Positions 5,279 to 30,649 of a stretch of 30,649 nt of DNA are shown here, piece after piece. The stretch comes from a virus (taxonomy: Duplodnaviria; Heunggongvirae; Uroviricota; Caudoviricetes): IMG/VR virus record IMGVR_UViG_2802429244_000003; one strand, given 5' to 3'. Each line of letters starts with the position of its first letter. Positions within the stretch are counted from its first letter, which is position 1. The notes beneath the pieces were generated by a model. It was not told the origin of the DNA, made no database searches, and saw nothing but the letters and a program-made list of their open reading frames with translations. Made by a program: the position numbers and the translations under genes.

Positions 5279-5919
5279 TTGTCGGTATACCTCTCTCGTT
5301 TGCTCAGTTGTTCAGGAATATGGTGCAGCAGCTCGCCATCACCACAGTAAATAGCGGCATGATTCGGCACCGATGAACCAAAGCAGCACAGCAGCACATC
5401 GCCCGGCTGCGCCGCTGACAACGGCACCTGATACAGCCCCGTTGCCTCCAGATTATCCAGATAGAGATTCTGACCGTGACGCCACCAGTCATCCTCCCGC
5501 GTAAAATCCGGCATCTCAATCCCCGCCAGATGGTAAGCATCCCGGAACAGCGTGTAACAGTCCGTCACCCCGTGCTCAAAGCGCCGCCCGGTGAGATGCG
5601 GCACACAGCGGAACTTGTGAATCGCCCCCCGGCAGACCAGCCACCACGGCAAATCACTCTGCACCTGCAGCCGCCGGTCGGCCTCACTCAGCCAGGGCAG
5701 ACCACCGGGGTGGCTGTGGACCAGCGCCACAATCTCACCCTGCATCTCTGCCTGCAGCCAGTCCTCCGGAGCCATCCGGAAATACTCCTCCGGCTCACCG
5801 GAAATATTCACGCAGGGAAAATATCTTTCCCCCTCCGGCGTTCTCACCACGAAGCCGCACGACTCCGCTGGCGCACATCGCCGGGCGTGCGCCAGAATCG
5901 CTGATTCTGTCTCTGTCAT
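5176..5919 (-). CDS. K: Tail assembly protein K (JAMM/MPN metalloprotease motif plus NlpC/P60-like cysteine peptidase region)
   Basis: HSHPGG...SEAD JAMM-type motif; a Cys-containing segment consistent with NlpC/P60; overlaps I by about 100 nt as lambda K does. Start chosen at the internal Met (MTETESAIL...) just after the L stop; the ORF track allows 5961 as an alternative start. Confidence 0.8.
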   Translation of the reverse strand: MTETESAILAHARRCAPAESCGFVVRTPEGERYFPCVNISGEPEEYFRMAPEDWLQAEMQGEIVALVHSHPGGLPWLSEADRRLQVQSDLPWWLVCRGAIHKFRCVPHLTGRRFEHGVTDCYTLFRDAYHLAGIEMPDFTREDDWWRHGQNLYLDNLEATGLYQVPLSAAQPGDVLLCCFGSSVPNHAAIYCGDGELLHHIPEQLSKRERYTDKWQRRTHSLWRHRAWHASAFTGICNDLAAASTFV

Positions 5920-19760: not shown

Positions 19761-20183
19761 TCAGCCTGACAGCTCTGACGAACGTCTGATACAACGCCCT
19801 GCATGAATGGCATCGGAATAATCCAGAAAGGCATAGCATCGTGCCCACAAGAATCTGTGTAAGTGTCCTGTTTCTTCCATCCCCGCACAGGACTGGCGAG
19901 CATGAGGGGCAAACCCGCGAACCATAAACGCGCTAAAAACCCTGTGTGCATCGTTTTTGATTATTCCCGCACACTCGCGCAGAAGGAGTTCCCCGTCGGG
20001 CTACGGTCTCTGTTAATGGGGGAATACGGCGACGATACGGCGCACAGAAATAGATCAGAAATCTATTGCCCACAATCCACATAAAGGCAATACATTGCAT
20101 GAGCACAGGTAATCGCCTATGCTCATGTATTGGCATTCTTTTGCCGCCGGCGAATCTTCAGCGGATTATCCTTGGCCGGTTTT

Positions 20184-20648
20184 TTATCTGAGGCATTGCT
20201 CGCTAATATATAGCTGTGCCCCCTCCAGTTGTTTTTGCATCAATATCAGCCGCTCTCTGAGGGTGAAATAATCCCGTTCAGCGGTGTCTGCCAGTCGGGG
20301 GGAGGCTGCATTATCCACGCCGGAGGCGGTGGTGGCTTCACGCACTGACTGACAGACTGCTTTGATGTGCAACCGACGACGACCAGCGGCAACATCATCA
20401 CGCAGAGCATCATTTTCAGCTTTCGCATCAGCTAACTCCTTCGTGTATTTAGCATCGAGTGCATCAGCAGCACGCTGGCGCTGCTGCATGTCAGTAATGG
20501 TGGCGGTCACCTGCTTCAGCTCACTGACTTTTTTATCACGCTGTTCTTTGTAGGCGATGGCGTTATCACGGTAATGATTAACAGCCCATGACAGGCAGAC
20601 GATGATGCAGATAGCCAGAGCATAAATAATCGCGGCAACTCTGCTCAC
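20184..20648 (-). CDS. Rz: Spanin inner membrane subunit Rz (i-spanin)
   Basis: From the GTG start reads [39 protein letters not shown]..., nearly identical to lambda Rz as recalled; GTG overlaps the endolysin stop as GTGA. Confidence 0.9.
20246..20428 (-). CDS. Rz1: Spanin outer membrane lipoprotein Rz1 (o-spanin), embedded in the +1 frame of Rz
   Basis: [60 protein letters not shown]: lipobox VVGC, proline-rich, nearly identical to lambda Rz1 as recalled. Confidence 0.9.
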
Positions 20649-21178
20649 TGCTCTATCCCCCAACAGGCTAATACGCTTTCCTGGTCACGACGAATAACCT
20701 GACCGTAACAATTATTTGAACGAATGCGGCAATCACGTCCACCGTCCTTTATCCACCAGCGAATCGCCTCGCATGCGCCTTTACGATCACCGGCATTCAG
20801 CCGCTTATAAAACGTCGACGGAAAACACTTACCGGGGCCAATGTTATAGGGACAGAATGACGCGATACCGGCTTTCTGTGGCTCGGTCAGTGGAACTTTT
20901 ATATTGCGCTCCACCCATGCCAGCGCCTTATCCCGCTCAATGGCGTTAACCTGGGCGCATTTTTCCTTCGACAGTTTCATTCCCGGAATAACAGGTTTAC
21001 CGTCCACCATCGTTGCTCCCCGACAGATGGTCCATATGCCGGAGCCATCGCGGTATGCAGTGGTGTGATTCCCCTCTTTTTCATCCAGAAACTGATCGAG
21101 AATGTCAGGGGCAGGAGCACTGGCGGCAATCAGAGCCAGAACAGCAGCCGACAGGCTGTATCTGATTTTTACGTTCAT
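20645..21178 (-). CDS. R: Endolysin, T4-lysozyme-type muramidase with a hydrophobic Gly/Ala-rich N-terminus (likely SAR endolysin)
   Basis: 177 aa; catalytic triad pattern E...D...T in [16 protein letters not shown]; N-terminal [24 protein letters not shown]; follows a pinholin-type holin. Confidence 0.85.
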
Positions 21179-21291
21179 GGATATTTATCAGGATTTATCG
21201 GCTTCAAATCCCCGGATATGTTAAATCTTACCTCGCCAGTGATGGGCACTGGCGGGAGGAGGATGTCAATCTGATAAACACAGAGGTGACT

Positions 21292-21552
21292 ATGGATTAC
21301 ACAAATCTACCAAAACAAACTTTTGCTGATTTAATCGCACTCAGGCAAGCAGTCGTAGCTCTAATCAACTTGTTGCCGGAGAAGGAAAAGGAATTAGTTA
21401 AAGCGCTTCTTAACAGAACTGCCGCCGATTTTTCATCATATCCACTGACAGATGACCTTGCGGACCTTCCTGAATTAATTGCAGCGTCCGCCATTAAGCT
21501 TACTGAAGAGATTTACCCTCCTCAAAAATCTTCACAAAATTCCTGCGAGTAA
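21292..21552 (+). CDS. Hypothetical acidic 86-aa protein, oriented opposite to the late operon inside the lysis cassette
   Basis: GAGG Shine-Dalgarno 5 nt upstream of the ATG; followed by a strong intrinsic terminator; no recognisable motif. Confidence 0.45.
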   Translation: MDYTNLPKQTFADLIALRQAVVALINLLPEKEKELVKALLNRTAADFSSYPLTDDLADLPELIAASAIKLTEEIYPPQKSSQNSCE

Positions 21553-22051
21553 CTTCAATGCAATAATCGTAAAACGCCGCAAACTGCTCATCGCGGCGTT
21601 TTTTTTCATCTTCAGAAGGAATAAGCACCGACAATTTTTTATTCAGATCAGCGACGCTGCCCTCCAGTTTTTCAATGAGCGATTCAATATCATCTTTTTC
21701 TGACCGCAATGCCGTCGGTGGCGTCTTCAGAGAACCAGTAATTCTTCCCGGTAGCTTTCCTTTGTAGGTTATCCACACATTCTGCGCCTCTAAAATTATG
21801 GGGCGCTTTTCCGGCGACTGCTCATCCCCTTCACATAACCCGGCAGCAACATCCAGGAATACCTGTCTGATTCTCATTCTGGCTGCTGCCTCATAAAACT
21901 CCAGTGCAGCACCTTCAACACGATCCATAGTGATATCCAGCTCAAAAATCTCACCGTCAAAGCGTTCTTTGTCCTGTAAGGCTAAAGTTACCGTAACTTT
22001 ATGCTCAAAATTACGGACTCCTTTCACAACCAGTTCATAGTCTTGAGTCAT
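21500..22051 (-). CDS. Hypothetical soluble acidic 183-aa protein inserted between holin and endolysin
   Basis: AGGAGA Shine-Dalgarno; start 5 nt after the holin stop; no transmembrane segment or catalytic motif seen; position is analogous to the ydfR-type gene that sits between holin and lysozyme in some E. coli prophages, but the family is not recognised. Confidence 0.55.
   Translation of the reverse strand: MTQDYELVVKGVRNFEHKVTVTLALQDKERFDGEIFELDITMDRVEGAALEFYEAAARMRIRQVFLDVAAGLCEGDEQSPEKRPIILEAQNVWITYKGKLPGRITGSLKTPPTALRSEKDDIESLIEKLEGSVADLNKKLSVLIPSEDEKKRRDEQFAAFYDYCIEVTRRNFVKIFEEGKSLQ
21573..21606 (+). terminator. Strong rho-independent terminator on the plus strand (GC stem followed by T8)
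   Basis: AACGCCGC, loop, GCGGCGTT, then TTTTTTTT; 20 nt after the 86-aa ORF stop; lies inside the 3' coding sequence of the minus-strand 183-aa ORF. Confidence 0.6.
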
Positions 22052-22055
22052 TGGA

Positions 22056-22271
22056 TTACTCTCCTCTCGCAGCCTTACGCCTGTCTTCTTTAATCTTGAA
22101 ATAAAGATTTGTCAGATACGTCAGCAGGCCAAAAACCAGGCTACCCAGCACACCGATTGCAGCCCACTGTGACGGAGTTACTTTATCGAGTAACTGCAAT
22201 GCCCAGAAACCAGCATTACCCGCCGATGTGCCATAGGCAACACCTGTTGTTAACTTATCCATTGATTTCAT
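22056..22271 (-). CDS. S: Holin, phage-21 S-type pinholin with dual-start motif
   Basis: [71 protein letters not shown] matches phage 21 S pinholin as recalled; Met1 and Met4 give the antiholin/holin dual start. Confidence 0.85.
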
Positions 22272-22490
22272 ATCCTCACCCCGATGTACACGGATGGTGC
22301 AATATGTTTGAAAATATCGGAGTCTACGGGGTAGTTTTTACAGCACACGTTGTTCTCAACGGCGCTAAAAAAACATACACATTAAAAATGTGGTTAATTA
22401 TTTTGAAAGAAAATCATATATTAATTAATAATACGAGAAATGTTTTCATATTTAGTGTACTGTATACGGCCATTTATACAGGAAAAGCCT

Positions 22491-22661
22491 ATGTCAGAAC
22501 GTAAAGACTCAAAATCACGCCGTAATTATCTCGTTAAATGTTCCTGCCCAAACTGCACCCAAGAGTCAGAACACAGTTTTTCAAGAGTACAAAAAGGTGC
22601 CCTTTTGATCTGCCCTCATTGCAACAAAGTATTCCAGACAAATCTTAAAGCTGTAGCCTGA
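22491..22661 (+). CDS. Candidate small zinc-ribbon protein (56 aa; CxxC, 17 residues, CxxC)
   Basis: MSERKDSKSRRNYLVKCSCPNCTQESEHSFSRVQKGALLICPHCNKVFQTNLKAVA; AGGA 7 nt upstream; hairpin terminator about 60 nt downstream; possible TTGAAA / TAATAA promoter elements upstream. Confidence 0.4.
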   Translation: MSERKDSKSRRNYLVKCSCPNCTQESEHSFSRVQKGALLICPHCNKVFQTNLKAVA

Positions 22662-22718
22662 TTGATTTTATTCGCAACAAGTATTTTTTATATTTTAATA
22701 ATATATTTAAAGCAGATA

Positions 22719-22745
22719 ATAAAAAACCCGCCTGAGCGGGTTTAA
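22719..22745. terminator. Bidirectional hairpin terminator, stronger on the minus strand (T6 tail)
   Basis: AAAAAACCCGC, CTGA loop, GCGGGTTT; on the minus strand the stem is followed by TTTTTTATT; lies between cspB and the holin. Confidence 0.6.
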
Positions 22746-23024
22746 TATTGTGGTGCTTTTTGTGAGAGTCATCCACTTACGCACTTTGTTTTGCTATGCC
22801 AGCAGTTAGCTTCTGCTGTAAAACTATTCATGCAGCAAACCTGCACTTCACCACAATGGTTAGCATACTTTTCCTGATTAAGTTATTACCAAATATGCTG
22901 GCCATTGTTTCATGTATTGGACCGCCTTACTCTTTATTAAAGAGATCCAATATTCACCACTCTGTCTGTATCTCCACTCAGGCATCAGCCTTCTTCGTTA
23001 TCGTATACAGACAAACTATGAATT

Positions 23025-23240
23025 TTAATCATTAATGATGACATTTGCTGCTGCAGGACCTTTAGCACCACTCTCTACAGAGAAGGTAACCTTTTGACCT
23101 TCAAATAAGGTTCGATAATTATCATTCTGAATCGCAGAAAAATGCACAAACACATCTTTACTACCATCAACAGGAGAAATAAAGCCAAAACCTTTATCAG
23201 CGTTAAACCATTTTACTAAACCAGTCATTTTATTTGACAT
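23025..23240 (-). CDS. cspB: Cold shock protein, CspA family (CspB-like)
   Basis: [67 protein letters not shown]: cold-shock domain with the RNP1 motif KGFGFI; long 5' UTR region upstream. Confidence 0.9.
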
Positions 23241-23539
23241 TCTACATTCCTTAACTTGAGCCTTTCGGCATAAATGGTTTGTATAACAGAAACGACTTCG
23301 TACTTAATTGGAGAGACTCAAAGAAGGAATAAGTGAATAACACCTGAAATGAGAACTGCTTTAGTAAACTACTTCGTATATCGTCTGTTCTTCAAACCGA
23401 CGCAATCATTAACGCATAGTTGAACATATGAAGCAATGTTTATTTTAGACATCCAGCCATCTTCAACCCCATCAAAAAACTATAGCTTTCTTCAGGAACG
23501 TGTGTATAGTGCGCCAAGTTATCAGTATTAAGGAATTTT

Positions 23540-23752
23540 TTGTCCCGTAAAATGACAGGAATTGTCAAAACCTTTGACTACAAAAGCGGCAAAGGTCTTA
23601 TCATACCATCCGATGGCCGTATCGATGTCCAGCTGCACGTTTCTGCTCTCAATCTCCGCGATGCAGAAGAAATTACCACAGGATTACGCGTGGAATTTTG
23701 CCGAATCAATGGTCTACGTGGACCTTCAGCTGCCAATGTTTATCTTTCATGA
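23540..23752 (+). CDS. cspF: Divergent cold-shock-domain protein (CspF/CspH-like, lacking the canonical RNP motifs)
   Basis: (M)[69 protein letters not shown]; the track start is a TTG with AGGA 5 nt upstream; an in-frame ATG lies 12 nt downstream. Confidence 0.85.
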
Positions 23753-23806
23753 GCTATATTAAAGCTTTTACTTTAAGCCCCATCGGATCACACATGGAGA
23801 GTTTTT

Positions 23807-23896
23807 ATGAATAACCCCGTCTGCCTTGATGACTGGTTGATTGGCTTTAAAAGCTTATGCTGTACTTTGGCCGTAATAGCTCTGCTAATAATATAA
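23807..23896 (+). CDS. Candidate 29-aa hydrophobic peptide (type-I-toxin-like small membrane protein)
   Basis: [29 protein letters not shown]; GGAGAG Shine-Dalgarno 5 nt upstream of the ATG; below the ORF-track size cutoff; found by manual reading. Confidence 0.3.
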
Positions 23897-24044
23897 TAAG
23901 CAGACTCATTGTGTTTAGGGACATTGTACTGGAAGAAAACATTTTAAACATCAGGCAAATAACTAAGTCACCAGCTAAATAATAAGTTAACAGACATGGG
24001 TCCCGGGATGAGGTTCAACATCACCATTGCCCCATTTAAAGCAC

Positions 24045-24080
24045 AAAACCCGCTCATCAGCGGGTTTTCTAATTTCTTTC
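24045..24080 (+). terminator. Hairpin terminator downstream of cspF and the small peptide ORF
   Basis: AACCCGC, TCATCA loop, GCGGGTT, then TTCTAATTTCTTT. Confidence 0.5.
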
Positions 24081-24358
24081 TAAACATCAGATATACAAAG
24101 CCCATCATTGAGGGAATCTTATCCATATTTTTTGAAAAATGCAAGCATCACGTTGCCATCTTCATTGAAAAACCTTTATCGTGTTACTTTTATCAATTGC
24201 ACTTCAGCATAGAGTTATCCCAGGCAGCACTTTAAAGACTTCTACATTACACACACCTTGTCTCCCCTTCTCGTCATATCTGCAAGACCGATATGCATGA
24301 CGCAGTACATACGCTGAACTGCTTTATCCATCAGCATATTCTAGTGCTAAAGCGACTT

Positions 24359-24386
24359 CAGTAGCAGAAGCAAAATTCTGCTACTG
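24359..24386. repeat. Perfect 11-bp inverted repeat, CAGTAGCAGAA and TTCTGCTACTG separated by a 6-nt spacer
   Basis: Read directly from the sequence; about 140 bp upstream of the DUF883-like gene; no T-tract on either side, so it is unlikely to be an intrinsic terminator. Confidence 0.5.
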
Positions 24387-24523
24387 TGCCAAACAGGAGT
24401 AAACGTCATTTTATGTAATGTTGATTGAGTGGTCATAGTATCACCTCAATAACAGCTCTTCGCCCTATCATTGAAAGCATATCTGCTATAATTAAAAAGC
24501 CACTTAACATCAGGACTTCAAAC

Positions 24524-24709
24524 ATGACTTCAAATCAATCTGAAAACGAAATAGTTAATACTGTCAAAAAATATGCATCATGTGCTGACGATGCTTTGCA
24601 GGCAGGCAAAGAAAACGTTAAAGATAAATTTAGAAATTATCCACTGACTAGCGTGGTGGTCGCTCTAAGCATAGGGTTAACGCTTGGTTTTATTATTGGC
24701 AGAAAATAA
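24524..24709 (+). CDS. Small C-terminally membrane-anchored protein, DUF883-like (ElaB/YqjD/YgaM family)
   Basis: MTSNQSENEIVNTVKKYASCADDALQAGKENVKDKFRNYPLTSVVVALSIGLTLGFIIGRK; the C-terminal single transmembrane segment ending in basic residues is typical of the family; AGGA upstream. The track ORF would extend to a TTG at 24425. Confidence 0.55.
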   Translation: MTSNQSENEIVNTVKKYASCADDALQAGKENVKDKFRNYPLTSVVVALSIGLTLGFIIGRK

Positions 24710-24766
24710 TCTTAAGCCTCCCATAAGTCGTACACAATCACATCTACCAATTAATGTTCCATTAGT

Positions 24767-24794
24767 AAAAAACCACCTCCTGTGGAGGTGGTTT
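24767..24794. terminator. Bidirectional hairpin terminator (CCACCTCC, TGT loop, GGAGGTGG), T6 on the minus strand
   Basis: A-tract and T-tract flank an 8-bp GC-rich stem; ends the plus-strand DUF883-like gene and the minus-strand small ORFs. Confidence 0.6.
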
Positions 24795-24845
24795 AAGGAT
24801 AGCAACAAAACACAACCTACTTTAAACGGCTATATTCTGCTATAT

Positions 24846-24965
24846 CTAAATAATAGGTTCTCTTTTATCATCCGGTGAAAAAGGGTTCAATGGTTGCCCC
24901 TCATCAGGACGCTCAACGGGCTCATCATCAGGCTTACGGTCATCAAAATCTGGATGTTCTGACAT
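24846..24965 (-). CDS. Candidate small hydrophilic protein (39 aa, acidic, proline-rich)
   Basis: MSEHPDFDDRKPDDEPVERPDEGQPLNPFSPDDKREPII; G-rich sequence upstream (GGGTGG) but only 3 nt from the ATG; followed by a terminator about 55 nt downstream; below the ORF-track cutoff. Confidence 0.3.
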   Translation of the reverse strand: MSEHPDFDDRKPDDEPVERPDEGQPLNPFSPDDKREPII

Positions 24966-25000
24966 ATTCCACCCTAGTATTTTTATGCAGGAAAGATTAT

Positions 25001-25108
25001 TTACTCTTTCCGGTTGTCTTTTTTATTATCCTTACCCTTACTATCCTCATTGTTTTTATTCCTGTCATGAGATTTTTCATTTGAATCACTTACATATAAT
25101 GTATTCAT
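25001..25108 (-). CDS. Candidate small hydrophilic protein (35 aa, lysine- and asparagine-rich)
   Basis: MNTLYVSDSNEKSHDRNKNNEDSKGKDNKKDNRKE; GGAG 5 nt upstream of the ATG; in tandem with the 39-aa ORF. Confidence 0.3.
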   Translation of the reverse strand: MNTLYVSDSNEKSHDRNKNNEDSKGKDNKKDNRKE

Positions 25109-25707
25109 GGGGACTCCAGTTTTTTAACAGCACAATGCTGTATCTGTAATTATAGATGCAATTAATCATTATGGTATGTATGTTTCATGCACAAATCAGA
25201 AACGCATCTAGTGCTTTAATTAATATGGATTTTATTGCTGTAGATTTACAAAAATTTTCATAATTAACCAGCAATATAAGACAAATATCTCATAACATGA
25301 GGGAAATCAAGCTCATTTAAAGCAATTTATAATTTTCATCCTACTATTTTCCCTACACTGCCAACACCAGTTTCGTCGCAACACTCTGACAAGACACCTA
25401 TAAAATCAGTTTCGTTATCACCTTAATTTTCTTCATGGGTAACAAACCGGTAATACATCGATAGCCTGATTGATGCACGTTACTGTTACCTCTTCCCTGC
25501 ATCAGGATGGCTTCCCAAGATGATATGGTTAATCACACTGGAACATTCACGCATAACCGTTTCCTTCATATCCTGCCGTTTTAGCATGTCTTTTCCCCTT
25601 CTTGTTAATATCAATGACTAACACAAATCTAAAAAAGCCAGCAATGTAAAAAAACTGCATTCACGGCAACCAGAATGGTTACCGTTCTGCACAAAGTTTA
25701 TGTCCAC

Positions 25708-25727
25708 AAAAAAACCACTCTGCGCGG
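25708..25727 (-). terminator. Candidate tR'-like terminator about 110 nt downstream of Q
   Basis: On the minus strand a short GC stem (CCGCGCAGAGTGG) is followed by TTTTTTT; position is analogous to lambda tR', where Q-dependent antitermination acts. Confidence 0.35.
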
Positions 25728-25837
25728 CTTATTGATATTTTCCACCGGTATGCATATAAGGCTCATCATTGGAAAACTCTTTGCACGTTTCCTTAGAAAA
25801 TACAATCGTTATGTCGCCATCGTTCGGTGAAAATCTT

Positions 25838-26590
25838 TTATCTTGTCACTTTTCTCAGTTGTGCTTCTGCATACGCTTCTTCCTGCCAGCACTTTGTTAC
25901 CAGTTTATCAATGACGTCCGCATACCCCTTGTACCACTGATAATCTGTCAGGTCCGGTACCAACTTCTGGACATGACGTCGTGCCAGTGTGGTCGGTAAA
26001 CGACTAAACCTGTTTCCATTACAACGCCCACAAATCTTATAAACCGGTACGCCATGAAGCCGGGTTCTTTTTTCATCCAGGACAATACCTTTACCCTTAC
26101 ACCCTCTGCACGCTGTGCTGACTTCGCCCTTACCATGGCAATGCTGACATAGTTCCTTCCCCCATTCTTCCTTGATAACAGATTCCCCACTTCTGTAGTG
26201 TTTCACCACTTCGCGCAATACATTATGAAATCCCGTACCTGCACAATGTTCACAGCGAGCCTTACTTGCCGCAGACCTGGAATAATCAGCAAAGGCAAAA
26301 TTCACAAGGTAAGGGATGATCTGTAACCGGGTTTCTTCACTCAATTTGTTCAATATCGGGTTATCCAGTGCCATCGCGTAATTGAGCAGACCTTCAATCG
26401 CAAACTGAGGGTCCTGAACACCAACTTTTGCCAGGAATAAGGCAAACCCAAGCGGTGCTTTCGACTGCACCATCCCCTGCGCAGCCATCACATCCGTAAT
26501 TGCTAAACCACCTGAGTCTGTCGCCGGTGCGTCATCGCTCAATTTTGGAGGTTTTGGGGAGTAATATTTTGGTAAGGCTTCAAGGTTCAT
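25838..26590 (-). CDS. Q: Late gene antiterminator Q (zinc-binding)
   Basis: 250 aa from MNLEALPKYY...; contains CEHCAGTG...CQHCHGKG...CRGCKGKG...CGRCNG Cys motifs; GGAGA Shine-Dalgarno; located upstream of the lysis cassette as quuQ is in the Qin prophage. Confidence 0.8.
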   Translation of the reverse strand: MNLEALPKYYSPKPPKLSDDAPATDSGGLAITDVMAAQGMVQSKAPLGFALFLAKVGVQDPQFAIEGLLNYAMALDNPILNKLSEETRLQIIPYLVNFAFADYSRSAASKARCEHCAGTGFHNVLREVVKHYRSGESVIKEEWGKELCQHCHGKGEVSTACRGCKGKGIVLDEKRTRLHGVPVYKICGRCNGNRFSRLPTTLARRHVQKLVPDLTDYQWYKGYADVIDKLVTKCWQEEAYAEAQLRKVTR

Positions 26591-26603
26591 GCTCGTTCTC
26601 CAC

Positions 26604-27653
26604 TTACGCCAATACGCCAATTGCCAGCGCACGATCGATAAAACGAAATATCAGCTCCAGCTGGGAGCCATACTTCTTTTCAAATGCCACGGTATCCGCA
26701 TGCAGCTCGTCGTGATGCTTTCTGCACAAAGGCAACACAAAGAGGTCATGCGCTTTTGTACCCATTCCGCCCTGACCATGACCAATCAGGTGATGGGGAT
26801 CGTCAGCTGGCTTACCACAACACGCACACGGCTGTGTCTTCACCCAGCGCGTGTATTTCTCATTTACCCAGCGGCGACGTTTAGGTCGCTTCATGAAAGA
26901 TTCCGGAGACTCCGGATCAACGGCAATGCTGACCTCCGTCTTTTCCTGTGGTGGGTTCTGTTGCTGGTGGGCGTGAGGCGGTAGCACAATATTTTTTGTG
27001 CGCTGCTTCAGTATACTGGTGGCTGTCTGCTCTCCCGGTATGATGTCACTCTCGCGGTAAAGCGAGCGGATTTTTTCAGCACGTAACCCCAGAGAACGAC
27101 GTAATACTGCCTCCGGTAGCGCGTCCGCTACCTGATTGCAGACCGCCCACCAGGATAATTCAGCCAGCGATAATTCCCGCTCCTGCGTGCCATTCATTGC
27201 ATGGCGTATGACGTCAATCATCCATGCTGACAGGTTTTGATGAGCAAGTTGCCCGAGTGATTCGGATGTCTGGTCACGCAGCTGGTTGTCGCAGTGCCAG
27301 CACAACACCATCGCGCCGGTACCGTAACGATGTATGACGATTTCACTGTGATGATAGTCACCATGAGGCCACTGGCAGGATTTGACATGACGCAACAGCC
27401 AGTCAGACAGTGCACCAGCGCCGCCAGCAGCACGAATCACCCGCTCATCGCTGAAAAATGGCAGTAATGATTTATCCTCCGCCAGCGGCTGGCGAACTGC
27501 AGGGACGACTCCGGATGGCAGGCCGCACATGCTTTTTGGTTCCGGCTCCACCAGCACGCGAGGATTATGAAATACCCGCATGGATTCACGGCCCGGTTTT
27601 AGCACCACCAGCCCAAGTTCCGGTACCGGAACAGGTCGAAGTAATACCCGCAC
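26604..27653 (-). CDS. DUF968-domain protein (ydfU-like; Cys/His-rich C-terminus)
   Basis: 349 aa; C-terminal CACCGKPADDPHHLIGHGQGGMGTKAHDLFVLPLCRKHHDELH; immediately upstream of Q, as ydfU is in Qin. Family assignment is from memory. Confidence 0.7.
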   Translation of the reverse strand: MRVLLRPVPVPELGLVVLKPGRESMRVFHNPRVLVEPEPKSMCGLPSGVVPAVRQPLAEDKSLLPFFSDERVIRAAGGAGALSDWLLRHVKSCQWPHGDYHHSEIVIHRYGTGAMVLCWHCDNQLRDQTSESLGQLAHQNLSAWMIDVIRHAMNGTQERELSLAELSWWAVCNQVADALPEAVLRRSLGLRAEKIRSLYRESDIIPGEQTATSILKQRTKNIVLPPHAHQQQNPPQEKTEVSIAVDPESPESFMKRPKRRRWVNEKYTRWVKTQPCACCGKPADDPHHLIGHGQGGMGTKAHDLFVLPLCRKHHDELHADTVAFEKKYGSQLELIFRFIDRALAIGVLA

Positions 27654-27654
27654 G

Positions 27655-27933
27655 TTACCTCCAGATGCGTTGCTGGAATGTGCGGGACGGACGCGGTGGG
27701 CGTTCGGAATAAGGGAGTCTGACGTAGATTATCCAGAGACGATAATCGAGGCTGAGGGCTTTCCTAAACTCATACCCACGTCTGCGGTAGTTCTGAATTA
27801 GCCACTCTGCCTGTTCTTCAGTGCATGGATCATGCTGGAACCAGTCAGATTTGAATGCGTGCGAATGCCGCCCGTGCCTGCTGGCAAAGACGGCGAGATT
27901 ATCAGAATTGTGTGATCTGGAATTTTGCGCCAT
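27655..27933 (-). CDS. Hypothetical protein (92 aa), in the position occupied by rem in the Qin prophage
   Basis: GGAG Shine-Dalgarno 7 nt upstream; stop abuts the start of the DUF968 gene; no recognisable motif. Confidence 0.4.
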   Translation of the reverse strand: MAQNSRSHNSDNLAVFASRHGRHSHAFKSDWFQHDPCTEEQAEWLIQNYRRRGYEFRKALSLDYRLWIIYVRLPYSERPPRPSRTFQQRIWR

Positions 27934-27999
27934 CGGCTTTCTCCGGTGGCACAGTGTTACTCAACAGGGGTTCAGCCCTGCGCTGAATTGTAGATGAAT

Positions 28000-28260
28000 T
28001 CACTCATCTTCAAAAGCAGAAAAACCAGCCTTAATCCCAGCTTCTTTCAGAGACGGCAACGATGTGACAAATTCATTTGCACGCAAAATAAAACCATCCG
28101 TCACAAGCCCATCCACCAAATGAATTAACGCAGCTCCACTCTTCCTTTGTTGAGACTGTAAACATTTAATACGGCAGTGGCTGACAATAGCGCCATTCTC
28201 AACGCGCACAGTATAGAGGCCATCTTCACTAAAAATTTCACGTAATTCTTCGATTTTCAT
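28000..28260 (-). CDS. Hypothetical protein (86 aa)
   Basis: MKIEELREIFSEDGLYTVRVENGAIVSHCRIKC...; AAGGA upstream of the ATG; lies between the hok terminator and the rem-like gene. Confidence 0.4.
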   Translation of the reverse strand: MKIEELREIFSEDGLYTVRVENGAIVSHCRIKCLQSQQRKSGAALIHLVDGLVTDGFILRANEFVTSLPSLKEAGIKAGFSAFEDE

Positions 28261-28380
28261 CAACAGAATCCTTCCAGATAAATAGCACTCCCCTGTTTGG
28301 GGTCCATCCCTCTTCTCCCTGCGCGCTACTTAAGTATTTTTGATTCTATTCCGGCACCGTCCAGAACTTCAAACGCGTTG

Positions 28381-28411
28381 AAAATAAAAACAAAAACCCG
28401 CCGAAGCGGGT
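28381..28411 (-). terminator. Rho-independent terminator of the hok/mok transcript
   Basis: On the minus strand: AACCCGC, TTCG loop, GCGGGTT, then TTTTGTTTTTATTTT; about 70 nt downstream of the hok stop. Confidence 0.6.
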
Positions 28412-28480
28412 TAAGTGCGGGTGCGTTGAGGATGCCTGACACATCAGAGGTGGCGAGGGATTTCTCCCCCGCCTGGTCTC

Positions 28481-28636
28481 TTACTCCTCAGGTTCGTAAG
28501 CTGTGAAGACAGCGACCTCCGTCTGGCCGGTTCGGATTCGTACCTCGCAGAGGTCTTTCCTCGTTACCAGTGCCGTCACTATGACGGTTAAACAGATGAC
28601 GATCAGGGCGATTAACATCGCCTTTTGCTGCTTCAT
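28481..28636 (-). CDS. hok: Hok-family type I toxin (small membrane-depolarising peptide)
   Basis: MKQQKAMLIALIVICLTVIVTALVTRKDLCEVRIRTGQTEVAVFTAYEPEE, matching the Hok/Gef family (HokD-like) as recalled. Confidence 0.9.
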   Translation of the reverse strand: MKQQKAMLIALIVICLTVIVTALVTRKDLCEVRIRTGQTEVAVFTAYEPEE

Positions 28637-28693
28637 AGCCTGCTTCTCCTTGACCTTTCGGTCCGTAAGAGGCAATCTATATGTGACGAGCAT
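28481..28693 (-). CDS. mok: mok, the in-frame upstream reading frame whose translation is coupled to hok
   Basis: 70-codon ORF sharing the hok stop, with a 19-codon N-terminal extension (MLVTYRLPLTDRKVKEKQA) and GAGG upstream; the leader resembles the plasmid R1 hok leader (...CCUCUUAC...CAAGGAGAAG...AUGAA) as recalled. Confidence 0.6.
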   Translation of the reverse strand: MLVTYRLPLTDRKVKEKQAMKQQKAMLIALIVICLTVIVTALVTRKDLCEVRIRTGQTEVAVFTAYEPEE

Positions 28694-28760
28694 ATAGGGG
28701 CCTCACTTCGATTTATAGTCGGGTGGGGCTTTTATCTATCTGCCGTTGGTGTTCATGCCC
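28650..28760 (+). ncRNA. sok: Predicted location of a Sok-like antisense RNA; exact ends not determined
   Basis: Inference from hok/sok architecture: the antisense RNA should be transcribed opposite the mok translation-initiation region. A TTGACC -35-like hexamer sits at 28650..28655, but no convincing -10 element or terminator was found. Confidence 0.25.
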
Positions 28761-28789
28761 GAGGCAGATAGCCTCAAGCACCCGCAGCA

Positions 28790-28817
28790 ATTCTACTTAA
28801 CTCTCCTTTTCCCGCAA
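28790..28817 (-). promoter_or_regulatory. Candidate sigma-70 promoter for the hok/mok mRNA (-35 TTGCGG, 16-nt spacer, -10 TAGAAT)
   Basis: Read on the minus strand about 95 nt upstream of the mok start; the predicted transcript 5' end would lie near a GCUUGAGGC motif resembling the 5' end of R1 hok mRNA as recalled. Confidence 0.45.
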
Positions 28818-28904
28818 ACCGTTTTTATCCCCATCGGCAAATCGAATGCACCACCAGCGCCACCGCCATCGCAATTCCTACCGTAGTGAATGCCTCAGGT
28901 CAGG

Positions 28905-29474
28905 TCATTGATTCACCTCCTGCGGTGGTTCCGGTAGCGGCATCCAGTGAGTTGCTTGCTCAATACCATTACCCGGCTTAATCGTTGCATCTCCGCGCCG
29001 AAAGGTGCTTCCGGTATAGCATGCGGAGCATATTAGCGGTTCAACCAGAGAGCTATCGAAATTCACCGAAATAAGCACGTTCTGGCCCTTTTCAGGCATT
29101 CGATCACTACAGCTTATCCAACTATCCGGAGTTCCCGGAGAGTTGCCATTTACATCGAAGTTTGGCTCTGCGTCCTGAACCAGGAGGATGTAACCATTCT
29201 TGGCTGTATCAAGTTCTAACGCCTCGGTGACGGTGCCGAAATAGCGATTACCTAAATCAGCATCACAAGTGCTTACATCAATGGAAACCTCCATGCCTTC
29301 GATTAATTCTGGCAAGTTGTAAGTTTGGCTTACAGGCTCGGCTTCCAGCGATGTCAGTGCAATTTTGAATAACTCACCCTCTACTCGTGCTACCCCTGAA
29401 TTGGGATGGCATTTCGCAATCGCTATTTTTAATTTGGCTTCTTCGATTAATTGCTCTTTGGTTAATTCAGTCAT
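28905..29474 (-). CDS. DUF551-domain protein
   Basis: 189 aa with C-terminal ...ATHWMPLPEPPQEV, the W-x-P-L-P-E-P-P signature I associate with DUF551 prophage proteins. Confidence 0.65.
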   Translation of the reverse strand: MTELTKEQLIEEAKLKIAIAKCHPNSGVARVEGELFKIALTSLEAEPVSQTYNLPELIEGMEVSIDVSTCDADLGNRYFGTVTEALELDTAKNGYILLVQDAEPNFDVNGNSPGTPDSWISCSDRMPEKGQNVLISVNFDSSLVEPLICSACYTGSTFRRGDATIKPGNGIEQATHWMPLPEPPQEVNQ

Positions 29475-29483
29475 TTTTCATTA

Positions 29484-29505
29484 CCGCCCTTTCGGGCGGC
29501 CTCCT
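29484..29505 (-). promoter_or_regulatory. Structured translation-initiation region: AGGAGG, then a 6-bp GC stem with GAAA tetraloop, then 9 nt, then the ATG of the DUF551 gene
   Basis: Minus-strand AGGAGG CCGCCC GAAA GGGCGG TAATGAAAA ATG; the only strong Shine-Dalgarno is 31 nt from the start codon unless the hairpin folds. Confidence 0.4.
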
Positions 29506-29576
29506 GATGATTTGAGGGTGCAGAAATCCCTCCGGTTAAGGATTAAATTTTATTTACAGAACTGAATTTAATTATT

Positions 29577-29592
29577 CAGATATACGTATCTG
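29577..29592. repeat. Perfect 16-bp palindrome CAGATATACGTATCTG
   Basis: Self-complementary as read; lies in the AT-rich 146-bp spacer between the methyltransferase stop and the DUF551 start. Confidence 0.5.
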
Positions 29593-29620
29593 TAACCTTA
29601 CGAACCTACTCACTGGATGC

Positions 29621-30094
29621 CTATTTCATAAAAATAATCCAGTGGGTTTTATCGTTTTTTTCTGTTCGTTGACCGATAACAGGTTTTCTGTCGGTCAGTA
29701 CCAATATCTGGCGAACAGGTATTTGCGTTTCATTCCATTTAAAAATCAGAGCGCCGTATGGACGCAACACACGAAAGGCTTCTTTAAATCCCTGCCGCAA
29801 ATCATCACGCCAGGTATCTTTATTCAGCCGTCCATATTTCTTTCCCATCCAGGCGTTATCACCAACACGCTCAAGATGCGGAGGGTCGAATATAACCATC
29901 GAAAAAGATGCGTCTGCAAATGGTAGTGCACGAAAATCAGCTATCAGATCAGGACTGATAATCAGGCGTCGTCCATCACACAATGTGTGCTCTTCCTTTC
30001 TGATATCGCTAAATATCGCCCGGTCGTCATTCTTATCGAACCAGAACATGCGACTGCCACAGCACATATCAAGAATGGTTGCCGGTGCACTCAC
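29621..30094 (-). CDS. Small putative SAM-dependent DNA methyltransferase (orphan; DPPH motif)
   Basis: 157 aa; ILDMCCGSRMFWF (motif-I-like Gly-rich SAM site) and VIFDPPHLERVGDNAWMG (a DPP[Y/F/W/H]-type catalytic motif of amino-methyltransferases); start overlaps the upstream stop as ATGA. Confidence 0.55.
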   Translation of the reverse strand: MSAPATILDMCCGSRMFWFDKNDDRAIFSDIRKEEHTLCDGRRLIISPDLIADFRALPFADASFSMVIFDPPHLERVGDNAWMGKKYGRLNKDTWRDDLRQGFKEAFRVLRPYGALIFKWNETQIPVRQILVLTDRKPVIGQRTEKNDKTHWIIFMK

Positions 30095-30513
30095 TGCGCT
30101 ACCTCCTGAAAATTACCCTGATAGAAAGCCAGTACACGCTGCATAGCTTCGCTCTTCCGGCACTCGCGACAGATTATATTCAGGCGCCTGTCGTAGCGGC
30201 GTATTTCTCCGTCTGGTAATGACCAGATAAGGTCAGGATCAACCACAACCGTTTTTTTCACCTTTGCCCTGGATAATTTTTTGCGGGCGTTTTGCCAATC
30301 CTTACGGGCCTGTTCAGACGGAAATAACCCGTAACCAGAGTTGTATACATCGCCACTGGCAACCAGCTCTCTGGCGAGAACGCTCATCAGATATCTTGTC
30401 GCACCTGTCTTGGCTTCCAGTTGCCGTAACGTCTCGCGCCCACTCCGGCGTACCAGCTCAACAACCTGCCCTTTAATTTTTTCCCGCTCTTCTTGTGTAA
30501 ATACTTTTGCCAT
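30091..30513 (-). CDS. Hypothetical nin-region protein (141 aa)
   Basis: From MAKVFTQEEREKIKGQVVELVRRSGRETLRQLEAKTGATRY...; GGAGG 5 nt upstream; contains a C-terminal CRECRK; translationally coupled to the methyltransferase gene. Confidence 0.5.
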   Translation of the reverse strand: MAKVFTQEEREKIKGQVVELVRRSGRETLRQLEAKTGATRYLMSVLARELVASGDVYNSGYGLFPSEQARKDWQNARKKLSRAKVKKTVVVDPDLIWSLPDGEIRRYDRRLNIICRECRKSEAMQRVLAFYQGNFQEVAQ

Positions 30514-30528
30514 AAGCGCCTCCGGCAA

Positions 30529-30649
30529 TCACTTTTCCGATACAACACGGCGGGAAGAATCAGTAATCTGTCGAACAATATCCCGGTGCTTGTTCAGCTC
30601 CCGCAGCGCGGCGCAGACACGCTCCCACTTCTGGACATGATTTTTCGCC
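30529..30649 (-). CDS. 3' end of a hypothetical gene that continues past the right edge of the window
   Basis: Open minus-strand frame from the window edge reading ...AKNHVQKWERVCAALRELNKHRDIVRQITDSSRRVVSEK, with its stop 5 nt before the Shine-Dalgarno of the next gene. Confidence 0.35.
   Translation of the reverse strand, partial: AKNHVQKWERVCAALRELNKHRDIVRQITDSSRRVVSEK

Follow-up and report, generated by a model that had tools for sequence, protein, structure and literature searches.

In phage lambda the late promoter pR' is laid out as a -10 element followed by 6 nucleotides (nt), a sigma-dependent pause element and GGG. Pause elements are described in PMC5001585, and the short leader RNA of a pR'-type module can act as a small RNA (sRNA), as in the case of StxS (PMC7547250). 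Lambdoid phages also carry morons such as lambda bor and lom, or stx between Q and S. These are AT-rich extra blocks with their own promoter and terminator, present or absent among relatives, in a hot spot near Q and the lysis genes. In Escherichia coli, the DUF883 proteins ElaB, YqjD and YgaM are C-tail-anchored, RpoS-dependent and ribosome-inactivating. Ribosome inactivation by YqjD needs its N-terminus, dimerisation of the transmembrane helix and a conserved proline (bioRxiv 10.1101/2024.08.16.608256). Here an AT-rich interval (positions 23760-25840) of a 30,649-nt sequence from a Caudoviricetes virus (IMG/VR record IMGVR_UViG_2802429244_000003), called the window as a whole, was compared with these systems. 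The window comprises an intact phage or prophage of the lambda-like type, whose late genes are encoded on the minus strand, and the interval lies between the antiterminator gene Q and the csp genes. Taken as a whole, it is fairly probably a recombination scar carrying a moron, in which the working late promoter is probably the copy distal to Q and a cassette of three small genes is conditionally expressed. Elements of this kind are well known; the new details are this particular cassette and a promoter duplication that has decayed reciprocally.

Two copies of the late-control module

Alignment with the Qin prophage of K-12 gave two matches, at 22001-24233 (95.9% identity) and 25754-27000 (90.7%), so 24234-25753 (1.5 kilobases, kb) is extra DNA in the window. 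The cspF-quuQ region of Qin is colinear with the first match, including ynfS, terminator and promoter block, but it has a single late-control module and lacks the insert. In the window the insert is flanked by a diverged direct repeat of 73-99 nt with 75% identity (24136-24233 and 25797-25895). When K-12, an O145 prophage and six more Q-linked regions were aligned with it, this repeat proved to be composed of the final ~58 nt of Q followed by a promoter, a short leader and an intrinsic terminator. The copy directly after the intact Q (25712-25837) is called proximal here, and the csp-proximal copy (24045-24144 region) is called distal. The intact Q gene (25838-26590, minus strand) is of the quuQ/ydfT type, encodes 250 amino acids (aa), matches Pfam PF03589 (Antiterm, E 2.7e-53) and is annotated ydfT in relatives.

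The 29-nt block of -35, spacer and -10 (TTGCAT-N17-TAAGAT) was scored against the consensus of 10 aligned regions downstream of Q. This block is almost invariant, with 0-1 mismatch in 7 of the 10 regions. The distal copy (24101-24144, minus strand) has no mismatch in the 29 positions and forms a canonical pR'-type block, with -35 TTGCAT at 24144-24139, -10 TAAGAT at 24121-24116, a pause-type AATGAT at 24109-24104 and GGG at 24103-24101. It is followed by a tR'-type terminator (24045-24068, minus strand) with a bidirectional stem of 10 base pairs (bp) and a centroid energy of -16.3 kcal/mol, which is kept in K-12 and other prophages. The Q gene linked to this copy is only a decayed remnant of the 3' end (24176-24233, minus strand; 75% identical to 25838-25895), and the intact Q lies 1.7 kb upstream of the module. 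The proximal copy (25760-25837, minus strand) is degenerate, with 12 of 29 mismatches. It has a -35-like TTGTAT (25805-25800), AAAGAG in the -10 position (25782-25777), a pause-like AATGAT (25770-25765) and a weak terminator hairpin (25712-25730, minus strand; -7.8 kcal/mol) of 7 bp, including two G-U pairs, followed by U7. The pattern is reversed in the 3' end of Q, where mismatches to the consensus are 12/43 in the distal and 6/43 in the proximal copy. After duplication the two modules thus show a clean reciprocal decay, the proximal copy apparently having retained the coding end of Q and lost the promoter, and the distal copy having retained the promoter and lost the coding part.

The distal copy resembles lambda pR'-qut-tR' in its -10 element, the 6-nt gap, the AACGAT/AATGAT element, the GGG and a strong terminator ~45 nt further on. 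The locus differs from lambda in having the module twice and reciprocally decayed, with the putative working copy 1.7 kb from Q, and in its Q protein, which belongs to PF03589 and not to the lambda Q family. On these comparisons the late promoter in use is most probably the distal copy (~24101-24144), beyond the cargo, and its +1 is inferred near 24109. Late transcripts would then start downstream of the cargo and most probably cross only 23760-24109 of the interval. Q from 25838-26590 would act on this distal promoter and let RNA polymerase past the 24045-24068 terminator, toward cspB and the holin, which would place the cargo upstream of the late operon and not within it.

The preliminary description of this DNA had put the cargo inside the late operon and had late transcripts from Q crossing all of it, a claim that does not agree with an intact promoter block found only on the csp side. 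It implies that the promoter adjoining Q (~25770-25805) works, that Q-modified polymerase crosses the island and three terminators to reach the lysis genes, and that the distal copy is redundant or additive. The proximal copy does lie directly after the intact Q, as in all relatives, and retains the -35-like hexamer, the pause-like element and the hairpin with U7. It carries 12 mismatches, however, where seven other Q-linked regions have 0-1 in 29; its AAAGAG lacks the conserved final T, its spacer differs at 8 of 17 positions, and the distal copy is a perfect match. This arrangement has a small but real chance of being correct. Under the preferred assignment to the distal promoter, the transcription map of this phage group is probably corrected, with the cargo outside the Q-controlled late operon.

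The two direct copies, 1.66 kb apart, may be explained by the joining of two lambdoid phages whose Q genes were related. A phage of the "Q, pR', orf67" type would have had its late region replaced by a Qin-like phage segment starting inside the nin region, and an internal deletion would then have joined the end of the second Q to an antirepressor fragment. The complete interval was found in 40 of 5426 complete E. coli genomes, in one copy each and always in the same context, and the K-12-type junction without insert in ~1250 genomes. Absence from Qin and from ~99% of E. coli genomes bears out the idea of variable, horizontally acquired cargo put forward in the preliminary description. Two deposited phage genomes, HannyBb and PhiR63_1, also contain the whole arrangement (99% identity), which suggests that it is compatible with lytic growth. 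The IMG/VR contig L027 is 100% identical across the interval, and PhiR47_1 is colinear with the window as far as 24199 and divergent beyond. As a patchwork in a Qin-like E. coli phage, the insert is real but rare.

From the distal late promoter a leader RNA of ~69 nt (24041-24109, minus strand) is predicted, which would be constitutive in lysogens. Its position corresponds to that of lambda 6S RNA and of StxS, a regulatory sRNA (PMC7547250), and there is a small chance that the duplicated module gives a leader RNA with a StxS-like regulatory role.

A cassette of three small genes among pseudogene fragments

Four decayed fragments were identified in the minus strand of the interval. Next to the Q remnant described above lies a 5' fragment of a P22AR-type antirepressor gene (24254-24448), with 79% DNA identity and in-frame stops when the translations were compared. 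A fragment of ren (25329-25469) has ~73% DNA identity to ren in many E. coli, including that of K-12 DLP12. A truncated first late open reading frame (ORF), orf67' (25486-25587), is homologous to the 67-aa ORF which follows Q in O25b-type prophages. Its homology extends over no more than its initial ~10 codons and the region upstream (25557-25759), which is ~75% identical to the O25b-type post-Q region. Demonstrable pseudogene debris makes up more than half of the insert. Judged by these similarities, most non-coding DNA of the interval is pseudogene debris (ren', antirepressor', orf67' and Q') which the preliminary description had missed, and not regulatory sequence.

Two further details were observed in these fragments. 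At the edge of the ren fragment (~25463-25471), the window and L027 are without ~23-32 nt present in the other carriers compared, and a 9-nt overlap of BLAST pieces at this place suggests a deletion between short repeats. The antirepressor fragment contains a perfect 11-bp inverted repeat with a 6-nt loop (24359-24386; CAGTAGCAGAA N6 TTCTGCTACTG), with no U-tract after it.

Between the fragments lies a live cassette (~24480-25180) with a guanine-cytosine (GC) content of 0.356, compared with 0.511 for the window. It is composed of two convergent units, orf61 on the plus strand (24524-24709) and orf35 (25001-25108) then orf39 (24846-24965) on the minus strand. The units share a hairpin terminator formed by a perfect 11-bp inverted repeat with a 3-nt loop (24770-24794), which is predicted to terminate transcription intrinsically and has U6 on the minus strand (-17.3 kcal/mol, z -4.6). 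In Enterobacter prophages the equivalent place is taken by a hairpin that is not homologous. A stretch containing this terminator (24764-24810) also shares 91.5% identity with 47 nt of E. coli ECOR29 and of the conjugative Salmonella plasmid NZ_MH579767.1, and the hairpin appears to move about as an independent module.

The three ORFs were found together in 17 of 17 E. coli-type loci and in all 12 Enterobacter-type loci, while 15 Leclercia-type loci contain the orf61 homologue only. In Enterobacter the cassette is situated between the lysis genes and terminase, not beside Q, and ORFs of 45 and 36 aa, homologous to orf39 (56% identity) and orf35, converge on the orf61 homologue. In Leclercia, Atlantibacter and Silvania (loci L009-L012 and L015-L019) the orf61 homologue lies without partners at the end of the prophage, past the tail-fibre genes and beside host genes. 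One of these loci, L009, has a 56-aa zinc-ribbon-like ORF (5335-5505) convergent on it.

The two tandem tiny hydrophilic minus-strand ORFs pointed out in the preliminary description correspond to orf35 and orf39. The orf35 product is an extremely hydrophilic Lys/Asn/Asp-rich polyampholyte of 35 aa (grand average of hydropathy -2.5), preceded by a GGAG Shine-Dalgarno sequence (25117-25114), with a homologue beside the same partners in Enterobacter prophages. The orf39 product is an acidic, proline-rich protein of 39 aa (isoelectric point 4.2, 8 prolines). It has its own Shine-Dalgarno sequence, which is conserved along with its ATG. Both are proposed to be disordered, highly charged micro-proteins. 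Neither belongs to a family in PHROGs, and these two and the other candidate small ORFs have no family in Pfam or NCBIfam. A profile search with orf39 retrieved only E. coli-type and Enterobacter-type variants and frameshifted calls, with no third lineage. The plus-strand ORFs that lie antisense to these two (24875-25084 and 24985-25149) were judged to be non-coding.

Variation of the cassette within E. coli carriers is too low to give a selection estimate, and near-identity within each of the two lineages means that the selection estimates come from single pairwise comparisons. Nonsynonymous (dN) and synonymous (dS) divergence were 0.41 and 2.26 for orf61 and 0.30 and 0.82 for orf39, which also shows an 18-nt in-frame indel against its Enterobacter counterpart; for orf35, dN was 0.45 and dS was saturated. 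Start codons, Shine-Dalgarno sequences, the TATAAT -10 of each unit and a 5' palindrome are conserved between the lineages.

The amount of debris invites the view that the whole island is recombination junk, with the small ORFs as chance open frames in AT-rich DNA without function. In line with it, PGAP annotates orf61 only, and orf35 and orf39 match no family in Pfam, NCBIfam or PADLOC. In Enterobacter prophages, however, the three ORFs are open with Shine-Dalgarno sequences, promoters and terminator at another genomic position, at ~51-70% nucleotide identity within the ORFs; dN is below dS, the indel is in frame, and, by computation, the antisense frame over orf39 would put most changes at its second codon position. 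This view is thus very unlikely. The joint recurrence at a different position, together with dN below dS, indicates that the three ORFs are real genes and form a mobile moron. The small ORFs of the preliminary description are conserved across genera and are therefore real.

The cassette has further properties of a moron. It is present in some close relatives and absent from others at the same site (the 40 genomes and two phages mentioned above), has predicted promoter and terminator sequences of its own, and deviates in base composition. Like bor, lom and stx, it is an AT-rich extra block with its own signals in the hot spot near Q and the lysis genes. It differs from these morons in being a convergent two-unit cassette of three very small genes. 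It differs further from stx in lying between Q and the putative working late promoter, and for this reason it would not be driven by Q. The comparison brings to light two micro-protein families that lack annotation, together with a truncated relative of ElaB/YqjD/YgaM carried by prophages; the three move together between phages of different genera.

Predicted expression and products of the cassette

Each cassette unit has its own candidate promoter, and the independent transcription signals proposed for the island in the preliminary description can be seen in the sequence and are conserved. The promoter and 5' untranslated region of orf61 (24484-24523, plus strand) contain an extended -10 TGCTATAAT, the -10 at 24487-24492 and an AGGA Shine-Dalgarno sequence at 24512-24515. 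CTATnnT is kept in all three clades, and Atlantibacter has exactly CTATACTTAA. The orf35-orf39 unit has its promoter and 5' end at 25127-25177 (minus strand), with TCTATAAT and the -10 at 25154-25149. The palindrome ACAGCAnnnTGCTGT is situated at 25141-25127, at the 5' end of the predicted orf35-orf39 transcript. Promoter and palindrome are conserved in Enterobacter prophages, and the promoter region shows no differences among E. coli carriers.

The sigma-S pattern is followed in each unit, which combines a weak -35 with a CTATAAT-type -10, a C at -13 and an A/T-rich discriminator. All promoters of the family have the C at -13, CTATnnT and an A/T-rich discriminator. Compared with the sigma-S -10 consensus KCTAYRCTTAA as quoted in PMC5650638, they agree in 8-10 of 11 positions, and the orf61 promoter of the window in 10. 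From this pattern we infer sigma-S dependence of the cassette promoters, and their conservation would argue for conditional expression over silence in the lysogen. Such promoters would fit the RpoS dependence of ElaB, YqjD and YgaM, as well as the cold-shock and stress genes of the neighbourhood (cspB, cspF, cspI, ynfQ, gnsB) and the GnsAB-type gene beside the Enterobacter cassette. By analogy with the three host proteins, the prophage may express the cassette during stationary phase or stress, and the cassette may act at the inner membrane. Its genes are therefore candidates for lysogen stress physiology, although the cassette is rare and narrowly distributed.

The orf61 product, a tail-anchored protein of 61 aa ('mini-DUF883', phrog_11629), was characterised by homologue searches, hhalign, an AlphaFold2 model and dN/dS. 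Its start is the ATG at 24524, on which the RefSeq annotation and the conserved promoter and Shine-Dalgarno sequence agree; a 94-aa version from a TTG at 24425 was ruled out on the same grounds. Hydropathy places the transmembrane segment at residues 41-59. The AlphaFold2 model, with a mean predicted local distance difference test score of 67, has a helix at 4-38, a break at Pro40 and a hydrophobic helix at 40-60. In hhalign, the family matched ElaB, YqjD and YgaM, as translated from K-12, with 90% probability (E 1.5e-6) over the last 30 C-terminal columns only, which represent the anchor. P40, G55, G59 and R60 are invariant in the family. For the N-terminal DUF883 domain there was no Pfam match to orf61 at E <= 10, and only ~39 residues precede the anchor. 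The label DUF883-like of the preliminary description thus fits the membrane anchor of this plus-strand gene and does not extend to the N-terminal domain. On these alignments orf61 has a DUF883-type anchor with Pro-kink and glycine zipper and no DUF883 N-terminal domain. It is like ElaB, YqjD and YgaM in its proline kink, its glycine-rich transmembrane helix ending in RR or RK, its predicted helix-kink-helix fold and its sigma-S-like promoter. It differs in length (61 aa against ~101), in missing the N-terminal domain for ribosome binding and inactivation, in scoring below the Pfam threshold and in being prophage-borne.

A word-indexed protein search with orf61 returned near-identical proteins only, and an exhaustive HMMER search was needed for distant homologues, at 36-50% identity. 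Profile searches and contig scans placed homologues in Leclercia, Atlantibacter, Silvania and Enterobacter prophages (34-57% identity). PHROGs gave only phrog_11629, of unknown function, and a literature search for the orf61 protein accession, its PHROG family, HannyBb and PhiR63_1 found nothing. The HMMER search also retrieved a 3151-aa protein (P0003) in which 26 segments resemble residues 15-49 of orf61 (E 1e-66); the Pfam matches of this protein are sums of weak repeat matches and look spurious.

A small membrane-anchored protein, encoded at classic moron and defence hot spots (Q-lysis, lysis-terminase and prophage end) and in Enterobacter adjoining a GnsAB-type gene, could also be the effector of a toxin-antitoxin, superinfection-exclusion or anti-phage defence module, with the charged micro-proteins as modulators. 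Against this, PADLOC gave no match at E <= 1 for six proteins including those of the cassette. The Leclercia clade has orf61 without partners, which is unusual for an obligate toxin-antidote pair, and non-toxic stress proteins have a homologous anchor. Such a module is unlikely. Also improbable, though in keeping with the shared anchor, is that orf61 is a phage decoy of host ribosome-hibernation factors, forming dead heterodimers with YqjD, ElaB or YgaM through its Pro-kink and glycine zipper, the parts by which those proteins dimerise, with or without the micro-proteins. If true, this would adjust how far ribosomes are inactivated in a stationary-phase lysogen, or leave ribosomes free for use by the phage.

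Returning to the interpretation of the interval as a scar with a distal late promoter and a conditionally expressed moron, several points weigh against it. The distal promoter (TTGCAT / TAAGAT) is modest by generic sigma-70 criteria and was not listed by a consensus scan. The assignment of -10 and pause element follows the lambda analogy and could be shifted; the proximal copy is degenerate whichever hexamer is taken as -10 or pause element. With its AATGAT and U7 hairpin, that copy may have residual activity. C at -13 is also found in sigma-70 promoters. The small ORFs are present in only two independent lineages and are nearly identical within each. The orf61 family scores 12-17 bits against Pfam DUF883_C, in four members, below the gathering score of 27. 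Finally, orf61 is without the N-terminal region which YqjD requires for ribosome inactivation, and has the other two features.

Composition of the interval and neighbouring elements

The gene layout of the window is that of the K-12 Qin prophage. Its structural genes (1-19.7 kb) match phages Tritos, cdtI and HannyBb, and the lysis genes are at ~20.2-22.3 kb. The AT-rich composition, low coding density and multiple terminators described earlier for the interval were all recovered. GC content was 0.372 for 23760-25840, against 0.511 for the whole window, 0.515 for Q and ydfU and 0.544 for the structural genes; the AT-rich stretch extends beyond the interval, through the csp genes to ~22250, also at 0.372. 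Supported ORFs account for ~24% of the 2081 nt (ynfS 90 nt, orf61 186, orf39 120, orf35 108). Terminator-like sites in 22400-26700 numbered 13, compared with 3.1 +/- 1.8 in shuffled sequences, and include the at least three hairpins noted before (24045-24068, 24770-24794 and 25712-25730). The perfect 11-bp inverted repeat reported earlier is in fact one of two.

The 29-aa hydrophobic peptide ORF of the preliminary description is ynfS (23807-23896, plus strand), a known small protein gene of Qin. It matches Pfam PF23697 (YnfS, E 4.7e-23) with 80.9 bits, above the gathering cut-off of 27, and the protein has been detected in K-12 (bioRxiv 10.1101/511675). No tRNA genes were found in 22000-27000, while O145 and Stx-type prophages have a tRNA cluster at the same spot.

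A search of 20000-30649 against Rfam at a permissive threshold gave no credible match inside the island. A hit to RsmY at 24045-24165 (19.9 bits, gathering score 57) covers leader and terminator only and was rejected as a chance match. Outside the island, sok antitoxin RNA was matched strongly (28634-28783, minus strand; 103.9 bits, E 2.9e-23), which fits a type I toxin-antitoxin locus of the hokD/sok kind upstream of Q, as Qin also has. The Hfq-binding RNA isrK, a prophage sRNA in Salmonella, was matched weakly and below threshold at 28391-28472 (minus strand; 24.9 bits, gathering score 50, E 0.047).

The csp genes next to the interval are cspF (23540-23752, plus strand) and cspB (23025-23240, minus strand). 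A full-length match to the cspA thermoregulator 5' untranslated region (22960-23401, minus strand; 156 bits) stands in front of cspB, so the first gene after the predicted late promoter would carry a cold-shock RNA thermosensor. Between cspB and the holin there are a strong terminator hairpin downstream of cspB (22724-22743, minus strand) and, on the opposite strand, the small zinc-knuckle gene ynfU (22440-22661, plus strand), both of which Q-modified polymerase must pass.

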